Shown one piece after another: positions 8,774 to 63,799 of a stretch of DNA of 64,000 nt (position 1 is the first letter of the stretch; each line of letters opens with the position of its first letter). The stretch is from an uncultured Verrucomicrobiae bacterium (GTDB lineage Bacteria; Verrucomicrobiota; Verrucomicrobiia; Chthoniobacterales; JAFAMB01). The stretch spans positions 288,001-352,000 of the forward strand of contig CAVXLD010000003.1 in NCBI GenBank assembly GCA_963762565.1, read 5' to 3'. The notes beneath the pieces are model-generated. The model did no database searches, was not told the DNA's origin, and worked only from the letters and a program-made list of their open reading frames with translations. Made by a program: the position numbers and the translations under genes.

Positions 8774-9032
8774 TGGGGTGAGTCAGGGGGGTGGGTGAGA
8801 GATCGGTGGGGCGAGCGCTGCGGCGTGGTGGGGATACGACCTATATGACTTATAGGACCTATATGTCACCACCATGGTGGGTTGGCGGGATGTCTTATAT
8901 CGACGATAAATCGCGCGGTGTGCATGGGCGCTGTGTTCGGCGATATTCGCCTGTGCGCCCTTTCGCCCCTTCGCCATATCGTCCTTTCGCTGTCCCTTGA
9001 CACCGGGGGATTTGCCGCATACCGACCACTTC

Positions 9033-10691: not shown

Positions 10692-10910
10692 CAAAGTAAT
10701 CAGTAATCAGTAGGTCAGTAAACAGTTTCAGGAGCGAGGAGCTAGAATCTAGGAGCTAGGAGAGGGCAACTTTGCTGGGGCGAGGCTCCCGAATAATCCC
10801 AACCTTCGAGCGAACCGATTGGTACTGTCATGCCATGTCATGCTGTTAGGTCTTAAATCGCGCCGAGCCGTGGTCTGTTGTGGGCCACGGCTCGGCGCGT
10901 CTATCGGCCT
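10692..10910. repeat. Heptamer arms plus left arm and central hairpin of a family A palindrome
   Basis: (AGTAATC)n, GGAGCTAGAATCTAGGAGCTAGG, then GGGGCGAGGCTCCCGAA and CGCGCCGAGCCGTGG/CCACGGCTCGGCGCG. Confidence 0.75.
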
Positions 10911-11200
10911 TGCTTACTCATCCCTTGGCGTTCGTACGGTCTACCGTTCCAACCCCGCGCGGTCGCAGGGTGCAAATCGGGGAGGGCGCGCTGCCTGTCC
11001 GACATAGCCTGAGGCAACCAAATCGATTTTTCTCCCAGCGCGGCGACGTCGGATCCCCGCGGGCCGAGAGGACTTGCCACAACCCAAAAGCTGTATTTTT
11101 GTCCACGATTACGACACGTTCTCAGCTTCGTTGACAACGGATCGCGAGGACGCGATCCCTCCCGGGCGTTGGGCGGCACGCATTCAAAGGACGAAGCGCC

Positions 11201-13759: not shown

Positions 13760-14150
13760 ATCGTCGTCGTCCTCGTCCGCGAAAGAGCGTGGGTCGATGC
13801 GACGTGCGATCGCCCAGCGTTTGGAGGGGAGCCGCTTTGGCGCGTATCACAGGACCTCGCAATATTTGTTTCAGGCTCCGTTCGGACCAAAGAATGTTGC
13901 AACGGGCGGCTCCCGGGAATAGCCCAGCGCCATGAATTTACCCATGGATTCCGATTGGTTCAGACACGAACTATCGAGCTGGGATCCGATGGGTCCTTCC
14001 CGGGAGCCGCCTGTTTTCGCGCGTTCCGGCTGGACTAGCGTTGGGGCGAAAGTTGCGAGAGGAACAATATGCACGCCAAAGCGGCTCCCCTCCAGGCGCT
14101 GGGCGACCGCACATCGCATCGACCCGCCAAACCGCGATCGAGGACGAGGA
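13760..14150. repeat. REPIN-like palindrome, family B
   Basis: TGGAGGGGAGCCGCTTT..GGCGGCTCCCGGGAA..TTCCCGGGAGCCGCC..AAAGCGGCTCCCCTCCA with outer TCGTCCTCG/CGAGGACGA arms. Confidence 0.88.
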
Positions 14151-18329: not shown

Positions 18330-18389
18330 GCGTGTGGGCGATTGGGCGATTGGGCGAAAGGGCGCACCGGCGAATGGGCGAAACGGGGC

Positions 18390-18610
18390 CGGTAGGGCGA
18401 AAATCTCGGCGCGCCCATGACACGCCATTTCTATCGATGCCTACGCGCCGGATTTGAGCCATGCGTACGCGCTGCCACATCGAGCACGTCATCGTTCTCA
18501 GGACCATCGAAGCCAGGGAGGTAGGAACCCCACGACGCGGCTCAAATCCGGCGCGTATACACCTGATCTGAATGGTCCGTCCATGGCGCGCCGAGATTTT
18601 CGCCCTACCG
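18390..18610. repeat. REPIN-like palindrome, family C
   Basis: GGTAGGGCGAAAATCTCGGCGCGCC...GGCGCGCCGAGATTTTCGCCCTACC with inner CGCGCCGGATTTGAGCC/GGCTCAAATCCGGCGCG. Confidence 0.88.
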
Positions 18611-18617
18611 CCTCGCC

Positions 18618-21256: not shown

Positions 21257-21698
21257 CGTTTCGTTTTCCGCGTACTCCACTGCATGCCGGTTTTGCCAGC
21301 AGGCAACACGTAGCAAGCGGAACCGCCCCCTTTTATAAGGGCAGACTTCTTCGCATGCAAGCGGACGCTGAACACAATTAATCGGCTATTTTCGCGCAGC
21401 GAGCGGTCGATGTGCAGGAGTCACCGCGCCTCGAGTCTTTGAGCGATCGCATCCACGACCTTTCGCTCAAGAACGCCTTTGCTTTGGAGCGGCAAATTTC
21501 AGCCTTGCCGTATTGGAACCCCAATTCATCCGGCGATTCGGCGTAAGCGGCGAGCTCGGTTAGCGGATGAGTCACGTCTCCGAGCGGCCACAGTCATCAG
21601 CGTGCGTGTCATGCTGCCGGTCTTACAAGAAATCGGACGGATTGGCGAAGGCGAACTGGTCAGTAAGCAGTAAGCAGTGCAGGAGCCAGGAGGTGGCG

Positions 21699-21924
21699 GG
21701 CCGGTAGGGCGAAAATCTCGGCGCGCCCGGGATGGACCACTTCTCTCGACGTTTACGCGCCGGATTTGAGCCAGGCGTGCGCGTTTCAACATCCAGGACA
21801 GCGTCGTTCCAGGACCATCGAGGCCAGCGAGATGGCAACTCCACCGTGCGGCTCAAATCCGGCGCGTATATGCGTGATCTCAATGGTCCGTCCGGGGCGC
21901 GCCGAGATTTTCGCCCTACCGGCC
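21699..21924. repeat. REPIN-like palindrome, family C
   Basis: Same TIR and inner stem as 18390-18610, flanked by (AGTAAGC)/(TTACTG) heptamer arms. Confidence 0.88.
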
Positions 21925-30317: not shown

Positions 30318-31391
30318 GTGCAAGATTTTACGGCGGGTGGGATACACGCACTGCATGCAGCATTTGCGTCGTCCGGGGATGAAGAGTTCGATCGGCGTAT
30401 CCGGGAGTTGTTGGTGGACTGGGGAGTCAAGGACTCGCCGGAGTTGATCGCAGAAATGATTGTGACGGCTTTGCGCATGGGCCGTGACGCTGTGCCGGTC
30501 GCTGATCTCAAGATGATCAATCGGTCTTTAAAAGAGCTGCGAGTAGCGTCGAAGGTTTTTGCTCCCTATCAGGGAGTGCGCAAGGTCGCCGTCTTTGGGT
30601 CTGCCCGGACCGCGCCCACCGCTCCCGAGTTTTTAGCGGCCGAAAAGTTTGCTTCGGCGATGCGAAGCGAGGGCTACATGATCGTCACTGGAGGTGGGGA
30701 CGGGATCATGGGAGCGGCTCAGCGGGGTGCCGGGCGGGAGCACAGCTTTGGCCTGAATATTCGTTTACCGTTTGAACAGCGAGCAAACGAGATCATCGAC
30801 GGCGACCCGAAACTTGTGAATTTTAACTACTTCTTTACCCGGAAACTCAACTTCCTGAAGGAAAGTCACGCGTTGGCGTTGTTCCCGGGCGGGTTCGGCA
30901 CGATGGATGAAGGCTTCGAATGTCTGACGTTAATGCAGACTGGGAAATCCCGAATCATACCGATGGTCCTGGTTGATAAACCCGGAGGGGACTACTGGAC
31001 GACATGGATTCATTTTCTTCAGGACCATCTCTTGAAGGAGGGTCTGGTTTCGGCGGATGATTTTCATCTGTTCAGCGTTACAGACGATGTGACCGTCGCA
31101 CTGAAGGAAATCGTGGGGTTCTACCGGAATTTTCATTCCTACCGCTGGGTTGGTGAGCAGCTCGTGTTCCGGTTGCAGAAACCCCTTACCGATCAAGCAG
31201 TAGAACGCTTGAATCAGGAATTTGCCGATCTTTTTGAGAAACGTCCATTGGCGGTTACGACCCCGTTAAAACCGGAGAAGAACGAGCCGGATACTCTCCA
31301 TATGCCAAGGCTAATCTGCGGTCCCCACCGCCGGAATTTCGGCCGGATGCGTCTGTTGATTGATGGAATTAATGCGGCCGCGGAGCGGTAA
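30318..31391 (+). CDS. LOG family (TIGR00730-like) nucleotide-binding protein
   Basis: VFGSAR, TGGGDGIMGA, YFFTRK, FPGGFGTMDE motifs. Confidence 0.9.
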   Translation: MQDFTAGGIHALHAAFASSGDEEFDRRIRELLVDWGVKDSPELIAEMIVTALRMGRDAVPVADLKMINRSLKELRVASKVFAPYQGVRKVAVFGSARTAPTAPEFLAAEKFASAMRSEGYMIVTGGGDGIMGAAQRGAGREHSFGLNIRLPFEQRANEIIDGDPKLVNFNYFFTRKLNFLKESHALALFPGGFGTMDEGFECLTLMQTGKSRIIPMVLVDKPGGDYWTTWIHFLQDHLLKEGLVSADDFHLFSVTDDVTVALKEIVGFYRNFHSYRWVGEQLVFRLQKPLTDQAVERLNQEFADLFEKRPLAVTTPLKPEKNEPDTLHMPRLICGPHRRNFGRMRLLIDGINAAAER

Positions 31392-31474
31392 TTTGTGACC
31401 CACTTTGCTGGGCCCTCTTTTGGTAGATGCCATGGTGTTGTCAGGCTGCCGGATCAACAGCAGCCTGACAAACA

Positions 31475-32581
31475 ATGATTGAATACAAACTCAAGGCGGC
31501 ACCGACCGCCGTAAGCCAGGAAAAGAACAGCCAAAAGGAAGCGAAGGCAAACCGGATCGTGCTGGGAGTCGATGCGCACCTAAAGAGCTATCAGGCGGCC
31601 CGCAAGATCGATAACGGGGCTGTGGGAGTAGCCCAGACATTCGGGAGCAAGGAAGCGTTGTTGCTTTACGTTGAGAAGCAGCGAGAGCAAGCCAAGGAAG
31701 TGGTGGTGGTCTACGAAGCCGGGCCGCTGGGGTACTCGCTGTATCGGCAGTTAAAGGCAAGCGGGATTGAGTGCCTGGTCTGTGCACCCCGCAGCGGAGA
31801 GCAGAAGAGGAAGCGGGGCAAGAACAACTCAATTGATGCGCGAACCTTAACCAGTGATCTGAGCAATTATCTCAATGGCAATGAGCAAGCGCTGCAACTG
31901 GTCAGAATACCGAGGGAGGCTCAAGAGCAGGCTCGAGTGGAAAGTCGCCAGCACGATGCGCTGGTGCAAGAACGCCAGCGCATCGGCGTCATGGGCAACT
32001 CCCTTTTGCTGAGCCAGGGCTACCAGAGCTGGAGCAATTGGTGGCGGCCCAAAGCTTTTGAGCACTTAAGCAAGGGGGTGGCGCCTTGGATTGTAAAACA
32101 TCTTGGTCGCTGGGTTGGGATATTACGCGAGCTAGACCAGCAAATTGAGCAAGCCAAGGCAGAGCTAACCAAGCAGTACCAAGGCCCACGGCCAAAGGGG
32201 ATGGGAGCTCCCAGCTTGGCGCAATTGAATGCTGAAGTACTGGATTGGAATCTTTACTCAACTGAACGCAAGATCGGCTGCTTAGCCGGGATGGTGCCCA
32301 GTGAATGGAGCAGCGGAGAGAGCCAACGCTTGGGTGCAATCACCAAAGTGGGACTACCGGCTCTGCGGCGCATCATCACCGAGATGGTCTGGCGGATGAT
32401 CCTCTTCCAGCCCGAGTATAAAGCGGTGCAAAAATGGCGTGAGCTACTGGAGGGCTCTAACCGAGGACTGAAGAAAAAAGCCGTGGTGGCCATCGGCCGG
32501 CAACTGATCGTCGATATCTGGCGGCTACAAACCGGTCGTATTACTGCCCAGCAATTGGGTCTCATCATGATCGAGGGCTAA
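31475..32581 (+). CDS. IS110-family transposase / bridge recombinase
   Basis: RuvC-like VLGVDAH, YEAGPLGY, KNNSIDA; C-terminal AGMVPSEWSSG...GAITKVG with catalytic Ser; KKAVVAIGRQL. Confidence 0.93.
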   Translation: MIEYKLKAAPTAVSQEKNSQKEAKANRIVLGVDAHLKSYQAARKIDNGAVGVAQTFGSKEALLLYVEKQREQAKEVVVVYEAGPLGYSLYRQLKASGIECLVCAPRSGEQKRKRGKNNSIDARTLTSDLSNYLNGNEQALQLVRIPREAQEQARVESRQHDALVQERQRIGVMGNSLLLSQGYQSWSNWWRPKAFEHLSKGVAPWIVKHLGRWVGILRELDQQIEQAKAELTKQYQGPRPKGMGAPSLAQLNAEVLDWNLYSTERKIGCLAGMVPSEWSSGESQRLGAITKVGLPALRRIITEMVWRMILFQPEYKAVQKWRELLEGSNRGLKKKAVVAIGRQLIVDIWRLQTGRITAQQLGLIMIEG

Positions 32582-32739
32582 AACCATTTTAGAAGTGACC
32601 CGAAGACTCGGGTTTTAACTTGGGGCTCTGCCCCAAACCCCGGTTCGGGGGAAACAGGAGCAAGCTGGCGCCTCTAAAGAGGCCCCATGGTTAAGGGAGA
32701 AGCTGACACAGCACTAGACTAAACATTTTAACTCTGGAC

Positions 32740-32920
32740 TTTGGAACGGCGCGCGCTCGTGCTCGCCCCTGGGCTTTAAAAGCCCGTTGGTAGATTGGGC
32801 GCGCTCGTTCCTCTTGAGCGATGCGTATAGAGCATCTTGCGCTGTCAAACCCTGACAGGCCGGATAGGAGGCTGCCTTGTCCCAATCGAGCTCGGAGACA
32901 TGAGCCACAAGAGGAAACGT
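32740..32920 (+). ncRNA. Predicted bridge/seek RNA core (target- and donor-binding loops); transcript ends unknown
   Basis: Loop 1: CTCGCCCC / hairpin / TTGGTAG matches both halves of the target. Loop 2: GCATCT / hairpin / ATAGGAG matches both halves of the circle junction. Closing stems are present. Confidence 0.75.
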
Positions 32921-33034
32921 ACCAACCGTCGCAAACCGGCTCGATCTCTGAACTAAAAATTTTGGCAACTACGTTGCTCTACAAAAGATGACAAACCGCT
33001 AAAAACACGCTGGGTAGCTTGACAACACCATAGG

Positions 33035-33250
33035 GGGGCGAGGCTCCCGAATGACCCTACGATCTTCGCGGAAGGTACGAAGGTTTCCCCTAGAAGACGT
33101 GTAACCGGGACGATAAGCGTGCCGAGCCGTGTCCCAGCGCTGGGTCCCGGCTCGGCCGATTATCGTCCTAGCTGTGCCTCTCTTCTGGCGCTGGCATTTA
33201 ATCCTTCGCGAAAATCGCAAGGTCTTTCGGGAGCCTCGCCCCACCAAAAA
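33035..33250. repeat. Family A palindrome (left tip at 31418-31424, displaced by the IS)
   Basis: GGGGCGAGGCTCCCGAA...GCCGAGCCG..CGGCTCGGC...TTCGGGAGCCTCGCCCCACCAAAA. Confidence 0.85.
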
Positions 33251-33267
33251 CGGGGCTGCAACCCGAC

Positions 33268-33540
33268 CTAAGCGGCGCTACGGCCTGTCTGTTCGAGGAT
33301 ATAGTCGTGAATCGTGTTAACCGACGCTAACGCGACTCGAGCGACATCAGAGTTTGGCACTCCAACACCGAAGGCCTTTTCGATGCTGACGACCAGTTGC
33401 AAAGCGTCAATCGAGTCTAAGCCCAGGCCGTCCGGGCCAAAAAGGGGCAAGTCGTTAGCGATTTCTTCTTTTGGAGTTCGGAGCATAAGGTTTGTGATCA
33501 ACATGTCCTTGATTTGCTCCTTAAGTTCTTCTGATGGCAT
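33268..33540 (-). CDS. Acyl carrier protein
   Basis: PLFGPDGLGLDSIDALQLVVSIEKAFGV phosphopantetheine-Ser motif. Confidence 0.9.
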   Translation of the reverse strand: MPSEELKEQIKDMLITNLMLRTPKEEIANDLPLFGPDGLGLDSIDALQLVVSIEKAFGVGVPNSDVARVALASVNTIHDYILEQTGRSAA

Positions 33541-36822: not shown

Positions 36823-36845
36823 TGGGGTAATCAGTTTAGGAGCTA

Positions 36846-37118
36846 GTGTCCTGTCCCATAAATAACGTGGCTTTCGTTGCGATCAAAATGGGCCGCCGGC
36901 AAGGCGGGAGGAGGGCGCATATCTAGATCGATACGTAACCGACGAGCAACGCAGCCGCCGGCCCATTCTCATCGCAACCCTCCGGGCCGTGGCCAGTTGG
37001 CTGTTTTTCCGCGTTGCTCGCTCGACCCGTATGAATCAGATATGGGCGCTTCGCTCGCGCCTTGAAAAACAGCCACCTGACCGACGGCGAAAGCCACGTT
37101 ATTTATGGGACAGGACAC
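36846..37118. mobile_element. MITE, family D (273 bp, 31-bp perfect TIR, TA duplication)
   Basis: TA|GTGTCCTGTCCCATAAATAACGTGGCTTTCG ... CGAAAGCCACGTTATTTATGGGACAGGACAC|TA; second copy at 61386-61675. Confidence 0.88.
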
Positions 37119-37146
37119 TAGGAGAGGCGAACGGAGATCTATCGCA

Positions 37147-37533
37147 ATCGTCCTCGTCCTTGAAAAGCATGGTGGGCTGATGCGACGTGCGATCGCCTAG
37201 CGCCTGGAGGGGAGCCGCTTTGGCGTGTCCTAGGTGACCTCGCGATATTTGTTTCGGCGCTCCCTTCGGCCAAAGAATATCGTAACGGGCGGCTCCCGCG
37301 AATAGATCAGTGGTTTGCAGCTTTCTGGTCCGGGCTTAAACGAATCGAAAGTCACGGGTAGAAGCTTCACGCTGGGTTATTCCCGGGAGCCGCCTGTTTT
37401 TACACGCCCTGGCCGACCTAGCATTGCGACGAAATGTGCTAGGGCGGCGAGATACACGCCAAAGCGGCTCCCCTCCAGGCGCTGGGCGAGCATACGTCGC
37501 ATCGGCACACGCGCCACTTTCGAGGACGACTAC
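37147..37533. repeat. REPIN-like palindrome, family B
   Basis: Same four GGGAGCCGC/GCGGCTCCC blocks as 13760-14150. Confidence 0.88.
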
Positions 37534-41464: not shown

Positions 41465-41861
41465 TCGTTCTCGTCGTCCTCGTCACCGATAGGGCGGTGA
41501 ATCTCCCTAAAATGTGTGATCGCCCAACGTCTGGAGGGGAGCCGCTTTGGTGCGTATCTCGCCACCCTCGCGATGTTCGCCTCAAAATTAGGCCGATCTG
41601 AACGTGTGAAAACAAGCGGCTCCCGGGAACTACCCAGCGATTTGCAGCTCTGGACGGCTGGGTCTAAACGCATCGGACGCGATCAGTTGAACACCTCACG
41701 CTGGGTAATCCGCGGGAGCCGCCTGTTACCACATTCTTTGTCCAAATCGGGCGGCAGAAGAAATAGCGCGAGGTCGTGAATGACGCGCCAAAGCGGCTCC
41801 CCTCCAGGCGTTGGGAACAAACACACCTTTATCGGCGTGCTTGCCTTTTCGAGGACGAGGA
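41465..41861. repeat. REPIN-like palindrome, family B
   Basis: TGGAGGGGAGCCGCTTTGG...CCAAAGCGGCTCCCCTCCA with outer TCGTCCTCG/GAGGACGAG arms. Confidence 0.88.
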
Positions 41862-46519: not shown

Positions 46520-46608
46520 AACGTGATTAGTGATTGGTGATTGGTTGATGGGGCGAGGCTCCCGAATCGCCGAAAATGCTTCGCGAAGGGCACGGCTCGG
46601 TGAGCGGG

Positions 46609-56488: not shown

Positions 56489-56673
56489 GTTCTGAATTCC
56501 CGATCGTCGCGACTCCCCGCCGGGGTGTGCTTCCTTCCCGAGAGCTACCGGACCAACTCATTGCGGTGCTCCTTACAAGAATTAGGGATGACGCAACCGT
56601 AGCGATATACTCGGATTCTTAGAAAAACTGGAATTGTGGCGTGGCCGGCGGTAGGGGAATCCGAGGTGGCGCC

Positions 56674-56940
56674 TGGAGGGGAGCCGCTTTAACGCTTGCC
56701 GCAAGAACTGACGGCATCTTCTCCTGCTACGTGTTTGGACTGGGAAGGGTGAGAGCAGGCGGCTCCCGAGAATTACCCGGCGCTGTGCTTTGACCCAGTG
56801 TCTCTGCAGGATAGGCTAATAGAGCAGCAAAACGCTGGATCGTTCCCGGGAGCCGCCTGTTTCTCACCCGTTTCGGCCAGACATCCTATCGAGCAAATGC
56901 CGTCGGGTCTATAGCCATACGGCAAAGCGGCTCCCCTCCA
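56674..56940. repeat. REPIN-like palindrome, family B
   Basis: TGGAGGGGAGCCGCTTT...AAAGCGGCTCCCCTCCA. Confidence 0.85.
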
Positions 56941-57044
56941 CACGTGAATCGCGCCACATCCTCCTGGCTCCTCTCTCTGTACTCCTTTTAGGCCCACATT
57001 GACAATGCCCCACCTGTTCTATTAGCGTTCGCAAACCCCACACC

Positions 57045-61378: not shown

Positions 61379-61385
61379 GCATCTA

Positions 61386-61675
61386 GTGTGCTGTCCCATA
61401 AATAACATGGCTTTCGCCGTCGGCCAGTTGGCTGTTTTTCAAGGCGCGAGCGAAGCGCCCATATCTGGTTCATACGGGTCGAGCGAGCAACGCGGAAAAA
61501 CAGCCAACTGGCCACGGCCCGGAGGGTTGCGATGAAAATGGGCCGGCGGCTGCGTTGCTCGTCGGTTACGTATCGATCAAGATATGCGCCCTCTACCGCC
61601 AGTCCGGCTCGGACCGCCTTGCCGGCGGCCCATTTTGATCGCAACGAAAGCCATGTTATTTATGGGACAGCACAC
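61386..61675. mobile_element. MITE, family D (290 bp, opposite orientation to the 36846 copy)
   Basis: TA|GTGTGCTGTCCCATAAATAACATGGCTTTCG ... CGAAAGCCATGTTATTTATGGGACAGCACAC|TA. Confidence 0.88.
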
Positions 61676-61828
61676 TAGATTGAGTCTACGGGCGACAAGC
61701 TGGCTGAATTCCGGATTCCGAACAGCACGCATGTTATCGACATCTTCTAATGCCAAGACGTCCACATTCTTTGGCAGCGCGTGAGATGAAAGCTTGAATC
61801 TGGGAACCGATAAACGCGATAAGCAATC

Positions 61829-63540: not shown

Positions 63541-63580
63541 GGGGGAAGCGTAATGAGGAGTTCGAGGAGTTCAAGGAGCT

Positions 63581-63790
63581 TGGAGGGGAGCCGCTTTGTA
63601 ATATGGCAGATCTGTAGGTTGTTAGCAGGCGGCTCCCGGGAATTACCTATAACGCCTTAGTTCTACGTGTGGGGCGAATCTTGATTCTGAATTTCGAGAC
63701 CTCAGGGCCAAGTCAAGGCGCTGGGTATTTCCCGGGAGCCGCCTGCTAACAAGCTATAGACCTGCCAACCTACAAAGCGGCTCCCCTCCA
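63581..63790. repeat. REPIN-like palindrome, family B
   Basis: TGGAGGGGAGCCGCTTTGTA...TACAAAGCGGCTCCCCTCCA. Confidence 0.88.
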
Positions 63791-63799
63791 GACTCCTTG

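Follow-up and report, generated by a model that had tools for sequence, protein, structure and literature searches.

The IS1111-family insertion sequences (ISs) ISEc11, ISPa11 and ISKpn4 have a non-coding region downstream of the transposase gene (tnp) and subterminal inverted repeats, and in their seekRNA the segment complementary to the top strand comes first, with the matches overlapping at the core of the target (Siddiquee 2024, PMC11187229). The same source gives IS1111-family transposases a length of 330-350 aa and a C-terminal G-L-x-P-x4-S/T-G motif, and names ISPa11 as an element that targets the repetitive extragenic palindromic (REP) sequence. For IS1111 elements, Durrant 2024 (PMC11208160) reports bridge RNAs predicted for 93.0% of those in ISfinder, subterminal inverted repeats of 7-17 bp, and donor-binding nucleotides held in a multi-loop in many orthologues. 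The bridge recombinases IS621 and ISCro4 (Durrant 2024, PMC11208160; Hiraizumi 2024, PMC11208158; PDB 8wt6, 8wt9, 9t56) combine a RuvC-like domain, a coiled coil and a Tnp fold, use two guide modules that each pair with both strands around a 2-nt core, and target a host repeat. ISPpu9 and ISPpu10 of Pseudomonas putida, also of the IS110 family, occupy a fixed position in REP or bacterial interspersed mosaic element (BIME) repeats, with AG at both ends (Pares-Guillen 2025, PMC12288879). Here we describe an IS110-family element of IS1111 layout, found as a single copy in a 64,000-nt stretch (hereafter the window) of contig CAVXLD010000003.1 from an uncultured Verrucomicrobiae bacterium. We put at roughly 85% the probability that its right end encodes a bridge/seek RNA matching both the insertion site and the element's own ends, and we regard the element as a new example, real but ordinary, of the mechanism described in 2024.

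The locus shares with ISEc11, ISPa11 and ISKpn4 the placement of the non-coding region, the subterminal inverted repeats, the order and overlap of the target-matching segments, and the G-x-x-P-x-x-x-x-S-G motif, which here reads GMVPSEWSSG; like ISPa11, which targets REP, it is inserted in a host repeat. It departs from them in its host phylum, Verrucomicrobiota, in an RNA that is here predicted from sequence, and in a protein of 368 aa, longer than the published description of the family. With IS621 and ISCro4 it shares the fold, the host-repeat target and, as decoded, a candidate two-module design around a 2-nt core, whereas protein identity is only 15-17%, the RNA lies in the right end, a multi-loop makes up the predicted donor module, AG replaces CT as the core, and an asparagine (Asn118) stands at the family's third acidic position. 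Guide order is reversed relative to IS621, where the left target guide lies at 50-58 and the right at 77-80 (Hiraizumi 2024, PMC11208158). ISPpu9 and ISPpu10 resemble the element in family and in their fixed position within host repeats; the bridge RNA of ISPpu9 lies upstream of tnp in a long transcript, accompanied by the small RNAs Asr9 and Ssr9 and by a miniature inverted-repeat transposable element (MITE) partner (Pares-Guillen 2025, PMC12288879); here an nhmmer search for orphan RNA modules over the window and the 15 related loci described below returned only the 12 input copies.

Guide Matches in the Right End

The sequence-only reading had placed two guide loops in the non-coding right end, which runs from the stop codon for about 455 nt (32582-33034/36). 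All of its stems, strands and cap hairpins proved correct in coordinates and complementarity: the stem-1 arms GGAACG (32743-48) and CGTTCC (32806-11), the inner arms GCGCGCTCG (32751-59) and TGGGCGCGC (32796-804), which form nine pairs including two G-U, the loop-2 cap CTGTCA-AACCC-TGACAG (32842-58), and the enclosing arms TTCCTCTTG (32808-16) and CAAGAGGAA (32908-16). Each closing stem is thus present, but TTCC at 32808-11 is common to both, so the two cannot form in full together; in the consensus fold, stem 1 receives ACGG/TCGT and stem 2 receives TCCTCTTG/CAAGAGGA. Likewise the loop-2 guide strands lie where they had been placed, but the loop proves to be multi-branched, with three hairpins, where a plain internal loop had been described.

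Of the two guide strands, the one that pairs with the top strand comes first, 5' of its bottom-strand-pairing partner, and both overlap at the core, an order that had been recognized as typical of IS1111 elements and that agrees with the descriptions of Siddiquee 2024 (PMC11187229) and Durrant 2024 (PMC11208160). Handshake guides of the IS621 kind found no support by eye: the UG 3' of the right target and right donor guides does not complement the core-adjacent bases, apart from one possible G-U pair.

Anchored at the core, the matches extend over 7 nt (left target), 8 nt (right target), 7 nt (left donor) and 6 nt (right donor). When the 443-nt right end was subjected to 20000 dinucleotide-preserving shuffles and core-anchored match lengths were scored, these lengths were reached singly in 295, 174, 228 and 1099 shuffles, respectively, and all four jointly, the four-way match on which the sequence-only reading was built, in 0 of 20000.

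Covariation of the Right Target Guide with the Insertion Site

A profile scan of genome contigs with a 19-protein alignment yielded 15 related loci at 44-83% amino acid identity, 14 of them from Verrucomicrobiota/Chthoniobacterales metagenome-assembled genomes (MAGs) and one from a MAG titled Solirubrobacterales. The RNA region could be aligned in 12 sequences (the window and 11 loci) with a mean column identity of 83%, and nhmmer with this alignment matched the window at 32730-32920. In three loci (L002, L010 and L011) the contig ends inside tnp, leaving left junctions only, while L008 and L013 give no right junction; the printed right end of L008 held no bridge-RNA-like sequence beyond two small hairpins. 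Two copies are degenerate and share a MAG with the intact L005 and L006: L013 is truncated, lacks a right end and has an altered left donor guide (CGATCGGAGG), and in L004 (CAWBYX010000016.1 2956-4536) the left tip has been replaced, the right target guide mismatches at one base, and the left donor guide is interrupted by a 1-nt insertion.

Insertion is site-specific at 11 independent loci. All ten left junctions that could be read, in the window and relatives, are AG-ATGCC, preceded by GGT in nine and by GGG in L008. The eleven right junctions (window and 10 relatives) all read CCATAGG-core-GGCG, the core being AG in ten and GG in the window. Only the core dinucleotide stands at both junctions, with no longer duplication.

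The right target guide follows these sites. Guide and core plus flank match in full in the window (CTCGCC-CC with GG-GGCGAG), in L009 (CTCGCC-CT with AG-GGCGAG), in L001 (CACGCC-CT with AG-GGCGTG) and in L003, L005, L006, L007 and L014 (TTCGCC-CT with AG-GGCGAA). One G-U pair occurs in L012 and L015 (TTCGCC-CT with AG-GGCGAG), and the degenerate L004 has one mismatch (TTCGAC-CT with AG-GGCGAA). Watson-Crick pairs therefore fill 85 of 88 positions, with 8/8 matched in 8 of the 11 copies, a single G-U in 2 and one mismatch in 1. Three positions carry complementary changes: the first of the core in the window, the fifth of the flank in L001, and the sixth of the flank in L003 and the L005 group. 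Permuting the guides among loci reached 85 in 261 of 100000 trials, a count that serves as illustration and is no true probability because the copies are related. At the level of sequence comparison, this natural covariation confirms the target-loop decoding, since the right target guide tracks the right flank in relatives. Nor do identical loops occur at unrelated sites: L005 and L006, two loci of one MAG with identical loops, are inserted in the same site.

The fold itself is also conserved. With three predicted target-loop pairs left out, 96.9% of cells in the consensus fold are paired, compared with 36-52% when the partners are slid. The stem of the target module accounts for 13 pairs, with 98.6% of cells paired and two compensatory pairs, and its cap adds one; these three compensatory pairs, all in the target module, were equalled by 19 of 500 shuffles.

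The Recombinase

On sequence and on its predicted structure, the protein is of the IS110 family, with a RuvC-like domain, a coiled coil and a Tnp domain. Pfam PF02371 is matched at 46.4 bits (cut-off 21.3). An AlphaFold model built from a 48-sequence alignment (mean predicted local distance difference test score 89.4, predicted template modeling score 0.80) returned as its ten top PDB fold matches the IS621 and ISCro4 bridge recombinases, with E values from 6.6e-13 to 6.9e-11, template modeling scores of 0.57-0.69 and 15-17% identity. Kinship with IS621 is visible through the fold search only, because PDB sequence searches with the single protein or with a 19-sequence profile gave no match at E values up to 10.

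D33 and E81 are present in 48 of the 48 aligned proteins and D121 in 47. The nucleophile loop (G272-M-V-P275-SEWS-S280-G281) is present as well; serine occupies position 280 in 32 of the 48 proteins and threonine in the other 16, and G281 is found in 41. The third acidic position of the DEDD tetrad, within the K-T-D-x-x-D motif, is D in 38 of the 48 and N in 10, the latter including 8 of 8 members of the window's clade.

Judged from sequence identity, the clade is divergent, large and far from characterised elements. Among word-sharing candidates 494 homologues were found at E<=1e-3, the best 120 of the 494, mostly of metagenomic origin, at 66-100% identity, and an exhaustive search gave 4068 representatives at E<=1e-3 and 126 at E<=1e-30. 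In a plasmid collection tblastn matched 897 records, all below 60% identity and the best listed at 27-33%, too distant to be used in the RNA alignment.

A Palindromic Host Repeat as Target

The element sits in the left terminal inverted repeat of a palindromic intergenic element (Table 1). The sequence-only reading had called this target the host's own REP-like repeat, and the repeat is indeed repeated, extragenic and palindromic, but its units measure about 205-220 bp and are not classical short REP. REP units are about 20-40 nt in size and associated with the RAYT transposase. By their sequence, the target repeats look more MITE-like than REP. The units at 694-914 and 33028-33249 form long hairpins of about 205-220 bp (-125 and -128 kcal/mol) with 36-nt terminal inverted repeats and a common central hairpin, and the former is intergenic, between open reading frames (ORFs) ending at 682 and 937.

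In the window the end motif GGCGAGGCTCCCG is present in 7 exact copies and in 10 with at most two mismatches (3.35 expected), and the target motif GGTRGGGCGAR has 9 free sites (0.13 expected). Free sites of the form GGT-AG-GGCGAG lie at 698 and 11835, and of the form GGT-GG-GGCGAG at 8805 and 33235, the last being the partner arm of the hit repeat. The same GGTAGGGCGAA also terminates a second repeat family, located at 18391, 18599, 21703 and 21910. In other MAGs the insertions of the relatives fall in this target motif too, where the repeats of those genomes end.

The window holds further repeats, and the genome is unusually rich in them. Members of the roughly 205-bp family lie at 694-914, 10770-10915, 33028-33249 and 46543-46600, with GGTAGGGCGAGGCTCCCGAA-type terminal inverted repeats and a common central hairpin that contains GCGCCGAGCCGTGG. 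The second palindromic family (18387-18617 and 21695-21924, with the sequence GGCCGGTAGGGCGAAAATCTCGGCGCGCC) carries at its ends GGT-AG-GGCGAA, the site of the relatives' guides. A palindromic family of about 300 bp (GGAGGGGAGCCGCTTTGGCG, GGCGGCTCCCGGGAA) is found at 13787-14129, 37170-37512, 41512-41815, 56669-56943 and 63572-63799, and short tandem or degenerate repeats (CTAGGAGCTAGGAG, GTGATTGGTGA) are abundant. Inverted repeats at 36843-37121 and 61383-61678, 24 kb apart (211 nt at 97% identity plus an adjoining 65 nt at 97%), could be two opposite-oriented copies of another repeated or mobile element.

Element Boundaries and Features

The IS boundaries were set against uninterrupted repeat ends in the window and 11 related right junctions. 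The left junction reads TTGGT (31420-24)-AG (31425-26)-ATGCC and the right junction CCATAGG (to 33034)-GG (33035-36)-GGCGAGG (from 33037). With a left end of 50 nt ahead of the ATG (31425-31474), a long right end, and subterminal inverted repeats set a few bases inward of both tips, the architecture is that of IS1111, and the anatomy is what IS1111-type elements are expected to have. The repeats, at 19 nt, may be compared with the 7-17 bp of the literature (Durrant 2024, PMC11208160).

Several hairpins accompany these parts. The left-end hairpin is kept in the left ends of relatives. The pair of small hairpins after the stop codon is present in 12 of 12 loci (L001, L003-L009, L012-L015), in L008 too, though no bridge-RNA-like stretch follows there; from its sequence it might be a candidate processing or termination signal. 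Near the right end, a conserved hairpin with a T run after it on the minus strand resembles a terminator, one that would act on transcription entering the IS from the right.

Table 1. Coordinates, within the 64,000-nt window, of the insertion sequence, its recombinase gene, predicted RNA and target repeat.
Feature	Position	Strand	Remarks
Left target flank TTGGT (31420-24) and core AG (31425-26)	31420-31426	+	
Insertion sequence, IS110 family/IS1111 layout	31425-33034	+	1610 bp, one core copy counted
Left subterminal inverted repeat	31432-31450	+	19 nt, 89% complementary to 33013-33031
Left-end hairpin	31438-31471	+	12-bp perfect stem; just 5' of ATG; overlaps subterminal repeat
Recombinase (transposase) gene	31475-32581	+	368 aa, intact ORF; D33, E81, N118, D121, S280-G281
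Two small hairpins, GGGG-CTCTG-CCCC and CCCC-GGTTC-GGGG	32622-32651	+	After stop codon
Predicted bridge/seek RNA	32738-32927	+	About 190 nt; ends inferred from conservation and outer helix
Predicted target-binding module	32745-32809	+	Closing stem 32745-59/32796-809; cap hairpin 32771-85
Right target guide CTCGCCCC	32762-32769	+	Complementary to top strand GG-GGCGAG 33035-42
Left target guide TTGGTAG	32787-32793	+	Same as top strand TTGGT-AG, so pairs with bottom strand
Predicted donor-binding module	32808-32916	+	Closing stem 32808-16/32908-16; multi-branch loop, three hairpins
Candidate right donor guide GCATCT	32832-32837	+	Complementary to AG-ATGC at left end
Candidate left donor guide ATAGGAG	32864-32870	+	Same as right end ATAGG plus core AG
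Hairpin GCAAC-GTA-GTTGC, then T run	32965-32977	-	Conserved, near IS right end
Right subterminal inverted repeat	33013-33031	+	Includes TTGACA at 33019-24
Right-junction core GG (33035-36) and right target flank GGCGAG	33035-33042	+	
Host repeat hit, palindromic intergenic element	33035-33242	.	About 208 bp; 36-nt arms, 89%; -128.1 kcal/mol

Proposed Mechanism and Alternatives

Taken together, protein family, element layout, the four-way match and covariation support the view, put forward from the sequence at the outset, that this is an RNA-guided recombinase. In the mechanism that we propose, the recombinase would bind a bridge/seek RNA of about 190 nt (roughly 32738-32927), transcribed and processed from the right end. 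The first module would aim the element at the terminal inverted repeat of the abundant palindromic repeats, whose ends read GGT-AG/GG-GGCGAR, while the second, with its multi-branch loop, would use AUAGGAG and GCAUCU to hold the junction CCATAGG-AG-ATGCC, where the two ends meet in the excised circle. Strand exchange by the recombinase would follow at the 2-nt core, in the way solved for IS621. Transcription, processing, protein binding, donor-loop pairings and chemistry are the steps that we infer.

Several observations weigh against this mechanism in whole or in part. No Rfam family reached its gathering score over 31300-33400, so that no curated model confirms the RNA. (The only Rfam hit in E-value mode, which we attribute to chance, was Ysr251, whose 17 bits fall far below the gathering score of 100.) For the protein, Pfam PF01548 (28.3 bits, cut-off 29) and NCBIfam NF033542, "IS110 family RNA-guided transposase" (134.7, cut-off 140), both fall just short, and the DEDD tetrad is incomplete: its third residue is Asn118, and mutation of D102, to which we equate Asn118 by motif position and not by residue-level superposition, abolished recombination in IS621 (Hiraizumi 2024, PMC11208158). 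The many separate insertions of the clade suggest that Asn may be functional at this position. The left target guide, invariant apart from L009 (TCGGTAG), fits just 5-7 nt of the left flanks, and the L009 variant is uninformative, a 5' truncation having left that copy without its left flank. Moreover, the guides are mostly paired in the naked-RNA ensemble, with mean probabilities of being unpaired of 0.39 (right target), 0.31 (left target), 0.16 (right donor) and 0.24 (left donor), and opening all four costs 15.4 kcal/mol (from -79.0 to -63.6). Guides locked in stable stems, which would speak against a guide function, were thus found in part, the right donor guide lying in a predicted hairpin.

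The donor module is the weakest part of the bridge-RNA reading. The GCATC stretch of the right donor guide has a predicted pairing partner twelve bases upstream, GATGC at 32820-24; the hairpin that they would form reaches -6.5 kcal/mol on its own, and all 11 distinct rows keep its five core pairs unchanged. The donor-module stems show zero compensatory changes, and the donor guides and donor ends are invariant in the informative copies (ten of the 12 aligned copies keep the left donor guide intact; L004 and L013, both degenerate, depart from it); because neither varies, the donor loop offers no covariation test. In relatives the right donor guide reads GCATCA, which fits only G-ATGC (5 nt) and mismatches core position 1. 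These features would be expected if the first module alone were the guide, as in a seekRNA, with the ends recognised by the protein through the 19-nt subterminal repeats and the donor matches arising as by-products of a scaffold that includes the GATGC/GCATC hairpin. Target matches in RNAs of 82-96 nt are what Siddiquee 2024 (PMC11187229) reports, donor matches going unmentioned in the sections consulted. Against such a one-module guide stand the shuffles, of which just 228 and 1099 of 20000 attain the 7- and 6-nt donor matches, and the placement of donor-binding nucleotides in IS1111 multi-loops (Durrant 2024, PMC11208160). Furthermore, the right-donor-guide region differs in the window (AGAGCATCT) and in L009 (TGGCATCA), and both variants lengthen the complementarity to the invariant left end, which hints, as far as sequence can, at selection on the donor guide. 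We consider a one-module guide unlikely, and the exact donor-loop pairings as decoded somewhat better supported than not.

A slightly less probable alternative is that the window copy is a dead relic, its hybrid core and changed right target guide being signs of decay and its RNA no longer made or used. The sequence-only reading had given the core as AG, which holds at the left junction, in the left target guide and in both donor guides, but the right junction is GG, against AG in 10 of 10 relatives, so that the element has a hybrid AG/GG core. This mismatch, which also weighs against the bridge-RNA reading, fits decay, as does the presence of a single copy in 64 kb despite the 9 free sites. 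No sigma-70-like promoter was found by a linear-sequence scan of 31300-33300, which counts against the bridge-RNA reading as well as in favor of a relic; by eye, the circle junction has TTGACA at 33019-24 without a -10-like hexamer 16-18 nt beyond it across the junction. The ISPpu9/ISPpu10 minicircle is likewise reported to form no hybrid promoter (Pares-Guillen 2025, PMC12288879). A relic would hardly be expected, however, to retain a full-length ORF of 368 aa, the same as in homologues, with both ends and both subterminal repeats intact, or an exact protein that occurs on 8 contigs. The change in the guide is also complementary to the change at the junction and not random: in the guide (32768-32769), the base opposite core position 1 is C in the window alone, where relatives have T.

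For a working element, the hybrid core has a possible origin in the exchange itself. In IS621 the top strands are cut 3' of the core and the Holliday junction is resolved by bottom-strand cleavage (Hiraizumi 2024, PMC11208158). Because of this cleavage order, exchange between an AG donor and a GG target would be expected to produce heteroduplex cores; replication would then give one daughter with AG at the left and GG at the right. Alternatively, two independent point mutations may have produced the same state. It is possible, though doubtful, that the clade forms a separate "D-E-N-D" lineage of bridge recombinases, active in nature, whose RNA has an asymmetric core code, with GG in the right target guide and AG in the rest in the window copy; if so, the clade would tolerate, or have adapted to, a core mismatch. 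On this doubtful reading the donor-mimicking arm GATGC may also mask the right donor guide until the protein opens the masking hairpin.

Finally, the very improbable notion that the matches arose by coincidence or by capture of part of the target repeat, the right end having another role such as 3' untranslated region structure, draws on the shortness of the guides (6-8 nt each) and on a host very rich in G+C-rich palindromic repeats, and we reject it in both forms, since all four matches recur in none of the shuffles, the target strands are split across a hairpin here but contiguous in the repeat, and the guide covaries with the flank across MAGs.

Significance

To go by its title, a 2003 paper by Partridge and Hall concerns insertion in which a terminal inverted repeat is hit, one that belongs to a different repeated or mobile element; the present case, likened to theirs by title, differs in that the target is the ends of host palindromic elements of about 205 bp. 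A full-text literature search returned no paper combining Verrucomicrobiota, IS110 and bridge RNA. The element adds a decoded bridge/seek RNA from Verrucomicrobiota, far from the characterised enzymes (15-17% identity to IS621/ISCro4, and below 34% among the best listed plasmid matches), and, with a target loop that natural covariation confirms, it is a usable candidate for orthologue screens. Two small and testable departures, Asn118 and the hybrid core, touch on the strictness of the active site and of the core. For the organisms themselves, the finding marks the ends of the abundant palindromic repeats in these genomes as landing pads.

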